Source: Candidatus Latescibacterota bacterium (GTDB lineage Bacteria > Latescibacterota > UBA2968 > GCA-2709665). From it: a stretch of 64,000 nt of DNA. Positions 52,918-58,163 of this stretch are shown in pieces; the first letter of the stretch is position 1; every line of letters starts with the position of its first letter. The stretch lies in NCBI GenBank assembly GCA_965219455.1, contig OZ244744.1, positions 352,001 through 416,000 of the forward strand, read 5' to 3'. Made by a program: the position numbers and the translations under genes. A model generated the notes under the pieces. That model saw only the letters and a list, made by a program, of their open reading frames with translations. It had not been told where the DNA came from and did no database searches.

Positions 52918-54288
52918 TCAGTACCTGTTCATTTCGGGATGTCCGACGGTATAGCGGGTGCCTGCCAGCGGCACCTCCGCCATGGCGGATGCCTCCATTG
53001 TGAGCGCGGCAAGATCCTCCGGCTCCAGGGAATGCACATCCGTCTTTCCGCAAGCCCTGGCGAACATCTGACATTCGATGGCCAGGGTATGCAGGAAGTT
53101 GAATACCCGTTCGGCCGCCTCGTCCGGGTCCAGACGGCTTCGCAGCACCGGATCCTGAGTGGCCACGCCCACCGGACACAGTCCGGTGTGGCAGTGATAG
53201 CAGGAACCCGCCGGTACGCCGACCGTGCCCTCGTAATCCGCCTCGGGAATATCCTTGTTGCAATTCAGCGCCACCATCGCCGCCGTGCCGATGGCCACCG
53301 CGTCGGCGCCGAGCGCCAGCGCCTTGGCAAGGTCGGCTCCGTTGCGAATCCCGCCTGCATAGACGAGCGTAATCTCCCCGGTCTTGCCCACGTCGTCCAG
53401 GGCCTTTCTGGCCTGCCTGATGGCCGCAATGCCCGGTACGCCCGTCTCCTCGGTGGCCAGGTGGGGACCCGCGCCCGTTGACCCCTCCATTCCGTCCATA
53501 TAAATGCTGTCGGGGCCCGTCTTCGCCGCCATCCGCACATCGTCGTAAACCCGAGCCGCGCCAAGTTTCAACTGAATGGGAATCTGCCAGTTGGTCGCCT
53601 CGCGAATCTCCTCGATCTTCAACGCCAGATCGTCGGGCCCCAGCCAGTCCGGGTGCCGCGCCGGCGAACGCTGATCGATCCCCGCCGGCAACGAACGCAT
53701 CTCGGCCACCTGGTCGGTCACCTTCTGGCCCATCAGATGTCCGCCAAGCCCTACCTTGCATCCCTGACCGATAAAAAACTCCACGCCGTCGGCGAGACGC
53801 ATATGGTGTGGATTGAACCCGTAGCGTGACTGAATGCACTGGTACAGCCATTTCTCCGAATACCGGCGTTCGTCGGGCAGCATGCCGCCTTCTCCGGAAC
53901 ATGTCGCCGTACCCGCCATCGTGGCCCCTCTCGCCAGCGCCACCTTCGCCTCGTAGGACAGCGCCCCGAAGCTCATCCCCGTTATGTAGACAGGAATATC
54001 CAGCACCAGCGGCCGCCTGGCCATAGGCCCCAGGACCGTCCGGGTTTCACATTTTTCACGGTACCCCTCGATCACGAACCGGGTGAGCGTGCCCGGCAGA
54101 AACGTCAGGTCGTCCCACGATGGAATCTGCTTGAAGAGCGCCATACCGCGCATACGGTACCGACCCAGATTCGCCTTGATGTGTATATCGTCGATCACAT
54201 GGGGCGGAAACATGAAATTCCTGCCCAGAACCTGCGGGTTCCGGTCGGACCTTCCATTGTCGTGGCCATTATCTCTACGCGCTTCCAT
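52918..54288 (-). CDS. mgsC: N-methylglutamate synthase FMN/Fe-S subunit (MgsC/GlxD)
   Basis: 'TRFVIEGYREKC', 'GMSFGALS', 'GQGCKVGLGGHL', 'RSPARHPDW', 'CYHCHTGLCPVG'. Confidence 0.88.
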   Translation of the reverse strand: MEARRDNGHDNGRSDRNPQVLGRNFMFPPHVIDDIHIKANLGRYRMRGMALFKQIPSWDDLTFLPGTLTRFVIEGYREKCETRTVLGPMARRPLVLDIPVYITGMSFGALSYEAKVALARGATMAGTATCSGEGGMLPDERRYSEKWLYQCIQSRYGFNPHHMRLADGVEFFIGQGCKVGLGGHLMGQKVTDQVAEMRSLPAGIDQRSPARHPDWLGPDDLALKIEEIREATNWQIPIQLKLGAARVYDDVRMAAKTGPDSIYMDGMEGSTGAGPHLATEETGVPGIAAIRQARKALDDVGKTGEITLVYAGGIRNGADLAKALALGADAVAIGTAAMVALNCNKDIPEADYEGTVGVPAGSCYHCHTGLCPVGVATQDPVLRSRLDPDEAAERVFNFLHTLAIECQMFARACGKTDVHSLEPEDLAALTMEASAMAEVPLAGTRYTVGHPEMNRY

Positions 54289-54401
54289 AAGACAATACTC
54301 CCGGCTTCGCATCTGGGGGATGACGGCCTTGTCCCCGTCGATTCGCCGATTACGGGGCGCACTAAAGCGTTTCGTTGTATTTGCGGACGGGAAATTGCTA
54401 G

Positions 54402-55380: not shown

Positions 55381-56355
55381 TTACCTAGCCAGGAAATGAT
55401 ACGTGGCGCCCACATGGAACTGGTAATCGGAGGTTAGCTGGCTTTCGTTCACGTTCTGGTAAACGGGAAGCGGCAACCTCGCTTCGAGGCTCAGATTCTC
55501 CATTGCCCGTACGCCCAGCTTCGGCGCAAGATAAAGCCACGTGCCCCCGCGTTTTCGGGCTATCTTTCCATATTGGAAATAGTCGCGAGCCGTGTGAACG
55601 TGGTTCAGGCTGAGACCCGCAATAAACATGTCTCCATGCATATATTCCATTGAAAAGATGCCCTGAAACTCGTTCCCGTATTTGTAGCCATATACATTCT
55701 CGCGGGAAATAATGCGTGTGAAAAGCATACCGGAGAAAAACAGGTTGTCGAAGGCGCGCGACAGACTAACGGAGAAGATGGGGTCCATGCTGCCGGAACC
55801 CACCTGCAGCAAGTCGGCGAACCGCTGGCCATACTCATCGACCGCATGGGTCGACCCGTTCGCGAGCTTGACGCCTGCCGAAAAAAGCAGCCCAGGCAAT
55901 GCTTCCGGCAGAGGCGGAGCAAAGTTCAACATCAGGACAACGTCGCCGAGACCGGCGGCACTCCGGACATACTCGCCGCCCAGATACTGGTTGTCGTACT
56001 GACCCGGAAGAAGAAATTTGTCGTTGGTTATGGAACGAAACGGAAGAACAACGGCAGCTCCGAACCATTCGTTGACACCATAACTTGCGAACACCGACAC
56101 CGTTGAAATGCTGGTCACTTCCTGGTTGACGTTGGGGATCGGCCCTGTACCGAACATCGCATCGCCCAGAAACTCATGCTCGTAGTTCACGCTCAGAACG
56201 AAAAGATCCTGGGTAATCAGACTGCCCTGGAGCATTCTCCCGCCCGGGAGCACGGGACGACGTCAACTCACGCCTGGTTGCGCCGGCACAGATTTGTTTC
56301 CCGGAACCAGGTGGGTAAAAAGGACCAACGCCAAAACCGGTAAAACCCGTTTCAT
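55381..56355 (-). CDS. Putative outer-membrane beta-barrel protein with in-frame TGA at codon 31 (candidate selenoprotein)
   Basis: GAGGAG RBS and ATG 56355 give a signal peptide that is in frame with the 290-aa ORF across TGA 56263-56265; 'GLGD' and 'GSGSMD' motifs; C-terminal 'GATYHF'. Confidence 0.7.
56237..56250 (-). promoter_or_regulatory. Candidate bacterial SECIS hairpin
   Basis: CUCCC-GGGC-GGGAG stem-loop starting 13 nt after the UGA; the loop begins with G at +18. Confidence 0.5.
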
Positions 56356-56397
56356 CGTCCACGCTCCTCAAGCATTGTGGTTGGCGTTCAATAAAAA

Positions 56398-56901
56398 CTA
56401 GCCCTTCAATGCCTTATCCAGCAATTTTCTGAATTTTCGAAAGGAAGCGTACCCGGAAAATAGGACCTCCCCCCGGCCGTCTACGATCACCACGGTGGGT
56501 GTAAGCCGGGTCTCGAAGGCCTCGAACACTCGCCCATCCGTATCGATATAGCTGTGCAGAGATTCTTTCCTGCCGGCAAAATAGGTCTGGATCTCCTCCG
56601 CGCTGTTCTTCCACGCGATGCCGAAGACCTGGACCTTCTCTCCGAATTTCTCCCTTAACTTGAAGACATGCTTCATATCCTTCTTACATGTCGTGCACCA
56701 GGTGGCCCACAGATAAATGAAGGATGTCTTTCCTTCGCAAACCTCCGCCAGACTCAACGTATCACCCTCGAGCGTGACGACCTGCACCAGAGGCAACGGA
56801 TTGGAATTTTCGTCATTTGCGAACCCGATATCGGGGAAACAGAAGATAAGGCCCGCCCCCAGCATAACACCGGTGATCCAGACCCGTTTCGTCCCGCCCA
56901 T
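56398..56901 (-). CDS. TlpA/ResA-like exported thioredoxin-fold protein
   Basis: N-terminal signal, 'YLWATWCTTC', cis-Pro region 'TPTVVIVD'; GGGAG RBS before ATG 56901. Confidence 0.88.
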   Translation of the reverse strand: MGGTKRVWITGVMLGAGLIFCFPDIGFANDENSNPLPLVQVVTLEGDTLSLAEVCEGKTSFIYLWATWCTTCKKDMKHVFKLREKFGEKVQVFGIAWKNSAEEIQTYFAGRKESLHSYIDTDGRVFEAFETRLTPTVVIVDGRGEVLFSGYASFRKFRKLLDKALKG

Positions 56902-56966
56902 AATCACTCCCTTAAAGAACGGCATCCATACCCGAAAACGATGTCGCCGGCCGACCGATTGATAGA

Positions 56967-58163
56967 TCACCTTTTGACGATTTCCTTGTACACCACGCGA
57001 ATCCGATGGTTGAACGTATCGGCGATGTACAGATTCTCGTCCTGATCGAGCGCGACCCCATAGGGATTCCTGAGTTTTCCCCATCGGGGATGGTCGCTGT
57101 CGCCCTTGAAACCCGGCTCACCACACCGGCCGGCCAGGGTGGTAATGATACCGCCGGTATCCACCTTGCGGATGCAATGGTTACCGGTATCGGCAATGAA
57201 CAGGTTTCCCTCCGCATCGACGACCACGTCGCTGGGGCGCGAAAGGTTGGCCTCGGTCGCCGGTCCGCCATCTCCCGAATACGTTCCGGCAGTCGGGCCG
57301 ATACTGCCGCCGCCGGCCACCGTGCTGACCCTGCCGTTGGTGTCCACCATGCGGATGCGATTGTTGAACGTATCTGCGATATAGAGGTTGCCCCGGATAT
57401 CCAGGGCAATCCGGCCGGCGGGCTGCGCCGCGTCTCCCGTCGGCGCATAGAGGTCGGCCAGAATGGCAGGGCCACCGTCGCCGGCAAGTCCTTCCCGTCC
57501 GGTTCCCGCAATCGTCGAGATCAAACCGTTCAAATCCACCATACGAATGCGAAGGTTGCCCTGATCCGAGATATACATACGGCCGGATTCGTCGAAGGCC
57601 GTGGAACTCGGAAGATTCAACGAGGCCTCGAGAGCGGGGCCGCCGTCGCCCCCGAAACCGCGTTCGCCCCGGCCGGCGATGGGTTCGACGCGGCCCGTGG
57701 TGAAATCATACCTCAGGATCCTGGAATTCTGCCAGGCCGAAAGGATCAGCCGTCCCTGAGGATCGAATGAAATATGGGTCGGGTGGTCGATGCCCACCCG
57801 CAGCGCCGGACCCGCAGGCGCATCGCCCGGTTCGCCGTTGCCGATAAGAGGACGGACGACTCCGTTGTGGATCTCAAGAACGCGATTGTTGTTCCAATCC
57901 AGAATGTACGTCCGCCCGTCGGGACCGACAGTCATATCCTGGGGAAAATACAGGTGCGTATCCAGAGGACCCAATCCCGTGGCGTTCCTGCCTGCATCTC
58001 CGGTGCCGGCGAGGGTGATCATGATCCCGTAGGGCAACCCCGGGTACTCTTCGTACAGATCATCGTCCACGGTGGGCGGCGTTTTGCCGCAGTCAGCCAC
58101 AGAGAGGAGCAGGCCGAACGCAAGCAGGTACCGCGCCCACACATGTTCGAGGATTCTCTTCAT
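56967..58163 (-). CDS. NHL-repeat beta-propeller lipoprotein
   Basis: Lipobox-like 'SVADC'; repeats 'GDGGPA..A.L..P......D..GNLYIAD..N.RIR'. Confidence 0.9.
   Translation of the reverse strand: MKRILEHVWARYLLAFGLLLSVADCGKTPPTVDDDLYEEYPGLPYGIMITLAGTGDAGRNATGLGPLDTHLYFPQDMTVGPDGRTYILDWNNNRVLEIHNGVVRPLIGNGEPGDAPAGPALRVGIDHPTHISFDPQGRLILSAWQNSRILRYDFTTGRVEPIAGRGERGFGGDGGPALEASLNLPSSTAFDESGRMYISDQGNLRIRMVDLNGLISTIAGTGREGLAGDGGPAILADLYAPTGDAAQPAGRIALDIRGNLYIADTFNNRIRMVDTNGRVSTVAGGGSIGPTAGTYSGDGGPATEANLSRPSDVVVDAEGNLFIADTGNHCIRKVDTGGIITTLAGRCGEPGFKGDSDHPRWGKLRNPYGVALDQDENLYIADTFNHRIRVVYKEIVKR

Follow-up and report, generated by a model that had tools for sequence, protein, structure and literature searches.

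A predicted selenocysteine-containing outer-membrane beta-barrel family in Latescibacterota and related phyla

Results

An interrupted barrel gene

The DNA analysed here, referred to as the window, is a stretch of 64,000 nucleotides from Candidatus Latescibacterota bacterium (assembly GCA_965219455.1, contig OZ244744.1, positions 352,001 to 416,000; window position 1 is its first letter). On its minus strand an ATG at 56355 opens a frame of 324 codons that ends at a stop codon at 55381-55383 and reads MKRVLPVLALVLFTHLVPGNKSVPAQPGVS (30 codons), TGA, and then RRPVLPGGRMLQG onward to the stop. The gene is predicted to encode an exported outer-membrane beta-barrel protein in which this TGA is decoded as selenocysteine (Sec; U in motifs). 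Its features, including a hairpin that resembles a selenocysteine insertion sequence (SECIS), are as follows; an arrow in a motif marks the cleavage site.

55381..56355, minus strand: read-through barrel gene of 324 codons and a stop, with predicted signal peptide, Sec31 and barrel
56364-56369, minus strand: Shine-Dalgarno-like GAGGAG, 6-11 nucleotides upstream of the ATG
56281..56355, minus strand: predicted signal peptide, residues 1-25, with MKR, a hydrophobic core and V-P-A↓Q
56263-56265, minus strand: in-frame TGA, codon 31, the sole TGA in the frame and position 6 of the predicted mature protein
56237..56250, minus strand: SECIS-like hairpin CUCCC-GGGC-GGGAG, 12 nucleotides after the UGA, with an optional sixth pair 56251/56236
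55384..56214, minus strand: predicted barrel domain, approximately residues 48-324, 12-stranded and FapF/COG4313-like in the model

A preliminary description of this locus had proposed the ATG at 56355, the GAGGAG box and a same-frame upstream part containing the TGA at 56263-56265, and all of these were re-read as claimed. Its statement that the rest of the open reading frame lacks Cys is borne out by translation, the Cys count of the read-through protein being 0, and standard annotation does truncate the gene, since translation table 11 yields only a 290-residue piece (55381-56253) with a GTG start four codons past the TGA. It had further taken a C-terminal Y-x-F for a beta-barrel signal. 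This motif is present three residues from the end, but it is not terminal: the chain ends ...ATYHFLAR, the ends of homologues vary, and an aromatic C-terminal beta-signal was not found in the window protein or as a constant feature of these ends.

An in-frame TGA shared across phyla

A six-frame search of the window's own genome and 60 relatives gave matches in 21 of the 61 genomes. An orthologue (85-94% identity over residues 1-324) and a second paralogue (51-54%) are each found in 14/14 same-genus genomes, with exactly one TGA per gene. The second paralogue of the window's genome (C1:5700575-5701540, plus strand; locus L037:2004-2975) is 54% identical to the window protein and has the same TGA and hairpin. 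Two genomes from another genus carry the TGA gene at 54-56% identity, and the other matches were weak, partial and without stops. The codons TGA-CGN-CGN-CCN were read in 31 of the 33 genus-level loci fetched, the remaining two being contig-end fragments.

Scanning one genome per species gave 79 loci, and 51 of these, lying outside the window's genus, were read in frame. At 35-57% identity, 31 of the 51 carry A-x-A↓Q-G-G-[VI]-S-TGA-R-R-P-x-L-P-G-G; they belong to Calditrichaceae, KSB1, Latescibacteria UBA2968 and many Fidelibacterota/Marinimicrobia. The rest comprise one Poribacteria locus with TGA in a different local context, one partial locus and 18 distant loci without TGA. Among 80 metagenome loci the motif is present in 58, with TGA in 58/58, and the other 22 are distant or do not include the N-terminus. 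In two further studies, independent DNA contigs span the TGA site and show no difference there.

Recurrence of the TGA and the hairpin in every close homologue examined goes far beyond chance. The preliminary description had looked to a conserved TGA or Cys at this column; TGA is conserved across genera and phyla, but Cys never occurs there in close homologues. Its alternative of an error or a strain-specific mutation does not agree with the independent assemblies, which keep the TGA, and by this comparison of sequences the TGA is neither.

Upstream of the TGA, the 31 genus-level loci with the motif all keep the ATG, the GAGGAG or GAGGA box and a leader of 28-32 residues; the residues of the leader drift, and it remains basic at its start, hydrophobic in its core and A-x-A↓Q at its end. 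The same leader features hold across phyla (31 further genome loci and 58 metagenome loci), and GAGGAG or GAGGA stands before the same ATG in orthologues and paralogues. The cleavage site was assigned by inspection using the -3/-1 rule, and the cleavage VPA↓Q suggested earlier agrees with the recurrent n-, h- and c-regions and A-x-A↓Q ends seen on such inspection. The distance from the TGA to the next possible start in frame (ATG, GTG or TTG) varies from 4 to 171 codons over 100 distinct loci, a scatter indicating that there is no conserved re-initiation site. Judged by its conservation, the stretch before the TGA is coding and is the signal peptide of the same protein.

Recoding signal and machinery

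The hairpin consists of CTCCC (56246-56250), a GGGC loop (56242-56245) and GGGAG (56237-56241), with the first loop G at +18. Its coordinates were confirmed as first described, and the stem is conserved with compensatory changes. RNAalifold, applied to 57 distinct 66-nucleotide stretches, recovers the 5-base-pair stem. The middle pair joins the third positions of one Leu and one Gly codon, and in the 57 sequences it is CG in 35, UA in 18, UG in 2, AU in 1 and GC in 1, broken in none; the observed covariation score was attained in 0/500 shuffles. When the sixth pair is included 93.6% of cells are paired, as compared with 26-70% in slid registers. With metagenome loci added the set grows to 79 distinct sequences, where the middle pair is formed in 79/79 with five pair types and the loops are NGGN or GGUC. 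Support from covariation is narrow but clean.

In E. coli fdhF a short upper stem-loop about 11 nucleotides after the UGA suffices. The SelD gene of the window's genome (C1:3407174-3408097, minus strand; locus L212) itself has an in-frame TGA, in the motif ...CG-U-AAK, followed 12 nucleotides past the TGA by the SECIS AGUCC-GGUC-GGACU. This element and the barrel hairpin share the 12-nucleotide spacer, the 5-base-pair stem, the CC/GG closure and a similar loop (GGUC and GGGC, respectively), but differ in stem sequence and protein context. This match in geometry with the SelD SECIS of the same genome is the strongest support for the function of the hairpin. Against Rfam (E <= 10), the stretch 56100-56400 had no match other than one to a long non-coding RNA, meaningless at 11 bits. 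A genome-wide scan for a stop followed by 11-13 nucleotides, a 5-base-pair CC/GG stem and an NGG/NGT loop was unspecific, with 9 open-frame matches for TGA as against 5-14 when control triplets were used; those at SelD and at both barrel paralogues alone were convincing, and the scan was not used to define a selenoproteome.

Genes for Sec synthesis and insertion, which the preliminary description had asked after as selA/selB/selC/selD, are all in the genome: a cluster at 4.374-4.378 Mb of its 5.84 Mb holds SelA (481 bits), tRNA-Sec (73.6 bits) and the wing domain of SelB (75 bits), and SelD is present in its TGA-containing form. In a comparison of genomes reached through 49 of the 51 loci, SelA was found in 27/32 genomes with the TGA type and in 7/17 without it; among the 17, it was found in 0/8 genomes of Ignavibacteria, Melioribacteraceae and Balneolaceae, which have CC or CxC barrel forms. 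The five TGA-type genomes without a SelA match have SelD in four cases and SelB in three, at least one of both in each, so that at least one Sec-pathway gene was found in 32/32 TGA-type genomes searched.

Barrel model and relatives

The proposed outer-membrane beta-barrel agrees with structure prediction. An AlphaFold2 model built with 141 sequences is a beta-barrel with a predicted local distance difference test score (pLDDT) of 90 and a predicted template modelling score of 0.84, and the top Foldseek matches are FapF (5o65, E 7e-12) and the P. putida COG4313 channel (4rl8, E 6e-11). The TM-score of these two, the best structural matches, is 0.67-0.78 by target, at a sequence identity of 10-14% only. 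FapF is, in the accessible text of its description, a barrel of 12 strands with an N-terminal helical plug as its gate (PMC5557850), and in the model of the window protein a free N-terminal segment likewise precedes the barrel. Unlike the FapF/COG4313 systems, the modelled window protein has no visible coiled-coil domain, and an N-terminal Sec or Cys-pair motif is, as far as seen, specific to the superfamily of the window protein.

Pfam has no family for either the 290-residue frame or the read-through protein, and NCBIfam release 20.0, selenoprotein models included, gave 0 families for the latter at E <= 1. PF13557 (Phenol_MetA_deg) does not match the window protein; it matches the distant relative P0040 at 23.7 bits, and the label is precomputed on three close relatives. 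A profile search gave 3539 representatives at E <= 1e-3, and the closest of these all begin at profile position 35-36, just past the TGA.

More distant relatives in the superfamily have a Cys pair (Cx4C, CC, CxC or Cx3C) directly after the signal peptide, often as the sole two Cys, with A↓S-C-G-x-x-x-C-P, Q-x-C-C-x-x-G-x-P and Q-T-C-S-C as motifs of full-length proteins; all names seen for them are 'hypothetical protein'. They share with the window protein the barrel, the signal peptide and reactive residues right past the cleavage site, which the Sec follows by about six residues, but in place of the single Sec there are two Cys, and they fall in other clades of a barrel-only tree. Further metagenome relatives read G-G-C-G-S-x-C, Q-C-P-A-U-S-N-P-N-L-P (CxxU) and Q-U-A-A-U-S-N-P-N-L-P (UxxU), and the CxxU and UxxU forms each have a hairpin over L-P-G codons. 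This variety suggests that the superfamily uses Sec in several separate ways, and the N-terminal segment may well be its reactive site.

The Sec motifs noted at the mature N-terminus of distant members of the superfamily are CxxU (L207:100-102), K-U-A-S-P (L114:3046-3048) and UxxU (L208:2152-2154 and 2161-2163), the last with two TGAs nine bases apart and one hairpin.

The tree was computed by a quick method from the barrel columns only of 46 hand-chosen rows. Proteins with U-R-R-P form one group (support 99) with the two Ser forms nested inside (91), the Pro forms are a weakly supported sister (82), and the Cys-pair types lie elsewhere.

Genomic context

Two genes upstream of the barrel gene on the same strand complete the local arrangement:

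56398..57084, minus strand: TlpA-like thioredoxin/redoxin with WCxxC and an N-terminal hydrophobic segment (Pfam Redoxin, 2e-13)
56967..58163, minus strand: NHL-repeat beta-propeller, upstream of the redoxin and conserved within the genus only

The order in the window is NHL propeller, redoxin, barrel and methyltransferase, the outer two being conserved within the genus only. The redoxin stop lies 42 nucleotides upstream of the barrel ATG, and in 26 loci, among them some from KSB1, Calditrichaceae and Fidelibacterota, the redoxin gene immediately precedes the barrel gene on the same strand. Nine redoxin sequences compared have an invariant W-C-x-x-C and keep the N-terminal hydrophobic segment. 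The listed 228-residue redoxin frame probably starts too far upstream, since the alignment with homologues begins at an internal Met near 56907; a start there would provide a hydrophobic N-terminal segment.

Apart from the window's own paralogue, 46 loci have a lipoprotein beta-propeller gene following the barrel; this propeller has weak lactonase-like Pfam propeller matches and an invariant lipobox Cys, and the barrel in those loci is often preceded by an FG-GAP/ASPIC protein (Pfam) with a type IX secretion tail. The second paralogue at C1:5700575-5701540 is followed by the lipoprotein propeller and has no preceding redoxin. A relationship of this propeller to DUF3179 was ruled out (BLASTP E 26). 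At the two CC-type loci scanned (L121 and L122) a DUF3179 gene follows the barrel instead of the lipoprotein propeller.

These DUF3179 (PF11376) genes lie at L122:3945-5015 (E 1e-95) and L121:3978-5072 (E 4e-80), and L122 has a Crp-type regulator and a CMD/AhpD-like gene upstream. The DUF3179 family is listed as a selenoprotein family in the accessible part of a recent review (PMC13188914). In the window, a 464-residue frame (52918-54312, minus strand) lies just downstream of the methyltransferase gene, and its position beside that gene is conserved within the genus.

Two RNA libraries labelled sponge metagenome contain parts of the stretch, contigs of X17 covering 55381-55540 and 56854-57084 and those of X18 covering 56066-56284 and 56900-57084. 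They are partial and DNA carry-over is possible, and they are not claimed here as expression. In one contig from run X7, 56284 is joined to 56402, so that 117 bases with the start of the barrel gene and the spacer between the genes are missing; on its shorter side the joint extends over only 30 letters of metagenome sequence, and it may represent another strain or an artefact.

Discussion

The window protein is best explained as an exported outer-membrane barrel with UGA codon 31 decoded as Sec, a prediction from sequence to which we assign a probability of about 0.88. The analysis establishes that the recoding signal and the gene neighbourhood are conserved, that the Sec machinery is present and, at the level of a model, what the fold is. 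In the proposed mechanism, SelB with Sec-tRNA(Sec) would decode UGA codon 31 after being recruited by the SECIS hairpin 12 nucleotides downstream. The signal peptide would route the chain via the Sec translocon, and signal peptidase would cut after V-P-A to leave a mature N-terminus at Q26 with the sequence Q-P-G-V-S-U-R-R-P-V-L-P-G-G. The remainder would fold in the outer membrane as a barrel with 12 strands, like those of FapF and the COG4313 channel, with its sole selenol or thiol on a flexible segment which, in the structural relatives, plugs or gates the pore. The selenol may face the periplasm or the pore and could constitute a redox-reactive or metal/chalcogen-reactive site of the channel, and the WCxxC thioredoxin encoded upstream may keep it reduced or cycle it.

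Several observations weigh against this interpretation. The absence of a close homologue with Cys at the exact Sec column is unusual for a selenoprotein family. The only forms other than TGA at this column have Ser (P0016 and P0019) or Trp (P0044), all in single-member clusters represented by one contig each. A sister clade has Pro at the column (E-I-G-P-R-R-M-T-L-P) and no Cys in the mature N-terminal segment, which implies that the barrel can function without a reactive residue. The stem has only 5-6 base pairs, and in four of the five core pairs no variation is seen apart from a C·C at one core pair in 2/79 sequences; these four are set by conserved L-P-G-G-S/R codons, so that covariation rests on the middle pair and a weaker sixth pair formed in just 49/79 sequences. 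It may be that the L-P-G-G codons fix these four pairs, or that the hairpin fixes the codons. Residues 1-40 of the model have a pLDDT of 54-68, so the model does not place Sec with respect to the pore. Finally, the genomes compared for SelA are kin and mostly metagenome-assembled, and the co-occurrence is therefore only indicative, a matter of consistency and not a test.

The two Ser forms are full-length, single-chain metagenome proteins, and a metagenome scan with P0016 for its encoding locus gave no match. Their nesting inside the U-R-R-P group indicates that a secondary replacement of Sec by Ser is the best reading. The existence of both Pro and Ser forms makes it probable that the residue serves to tune or gate the channel and is not needed for the barrel itself.

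If the UGA were instead read by a near-cognate tRNA for Trp, Cys or Arg, stimulated by the hairpin and without any Sec, the lack of a close Cys homologue, the shortness of the hairpin and the one cluster with Trp at the column would be accounted for. This Trp form is, however, a lone sequence of 172 residues from a 634-nucleotide contig, and sense codons for Trp, Cys or Arg would be expected to be common at the column, where every motif-bearing locus has TGA instead. Together with a hairpin that equals the SelD SECIS of the genome in spacing, stem length and G-rich tetraloop, and with Sec-pathway genes in all 32 TGA-type genomes, this makes near-cognate decoding very unlikely.

That the TGA is a genuine stop, ending a 30-residue leader peptide, with the barrel translated separately from a downstream start, would fit both the output of gene callers, which give proteins of 277-290 residues starting right after the TGA, and the GTG four codons past it in the window. 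Such a product would have no signal peptide, so that export of the barrel would be impossible; the downstream starts are scattered as described above, the supposed leader resembles a signal peptide in its features and length and is in frame with the barrel everywhere, and the Ser forms occur as single full-length proteins. Separate translation is thus highly improbable. An error of sequencing or assembly, or a nonsense mutation that has recently turned the gene into a pseudogene, has nothing in its favour beyond the mere presence of a stop codon, and it is hardly credible given that the same TGA recurs in well over 100 loci from independent assemblies and phyla and in contigs from other studies, followed by an open frame conserved at 35-94% identity.

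Decoding of the UGA as Sec would make this a selenoprotein family that appears to be new, widespread and so far unlisted, although decoded by a known mechanism. A review of May 2026 has a table of 119 prokaryotic selenoprotein families, the accessible part of which includes two outer-membrane entries, the GSU2204 family MtrB/PioB-type barrel (NF041027) and the FCYXU TonB-dependent receptor (NF049945), and nothing resembling the window barrel family (PMC13188914). These two are likewise exported outer-membrane barrels with predicted Sec. They represent different folds and families with motifs that are CxxU or unspecified in that text, whereas the window protein would have a lone U six residues into the mature chain and no Cys partner. 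The accessible part of a 2022 review table lists no similar family (PMC9312934), and a full-text search of the literature on selenocysteine and outer-membrane or beta-barrel proteins turned up no description of the family. GOS_A of the 2008 ocean survey, which in the accessible text comprises 2 Sec and 155 Cys sequences (PMC2398784), was considered as a possible earlier description and rejected as unlike; the two are set apart by these counts and not by sequences, and identity is not fully excluded. The unusual traits of the family are the lone Sec near the mature N-terminus, the lack of a close Cys form and the outer-membrane location, and in the selenoprotein literature examined we found no precedent for Sec on a channel plug without a resolving Cys.

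One may speculate further on function. It is conceivable, though we hold it to be rather less than an even chance, that a channel family of the Fibrobacteres-Chlorobi-Bacteroidetes (FCB) group, in Latescibacterota, KSB1, Calditrichota and Marinimicrobia, uses a lone Sec on a mobile N-terminal plug as a gating selenol, or as a site at which a chalcogen, a metal or a redox-active substrate is handed over, with a dedicated periplasmic WCxxC thioredoxin servicing the Sec and the lipoprotein beta-propeller cooperating.

Searches that rely on Sec/Cys pairs would miss the family, as its close relatives have no Cys form, and if confirmed it would be one more selenoprotein family beyond the reach of such searches. 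It is common in the abundant marine Marinimicrobia and in Latescibacterota, and dozens of its members are at present truncated 'hypothetical proteins' without their signal peptide; if the prediction is confirmed, both the selenium demand and the gene annotation of these phyla would need correction. The analysis also draws attention to a large unannotated barrel superfamily, with the 3539 representatives found here, whose members have a Cys pair, CxxU, UxxU or U at the mature N-terminus, and this N-terminal Cys/Sec motif offers a concrete handle on the function of the superfamily.

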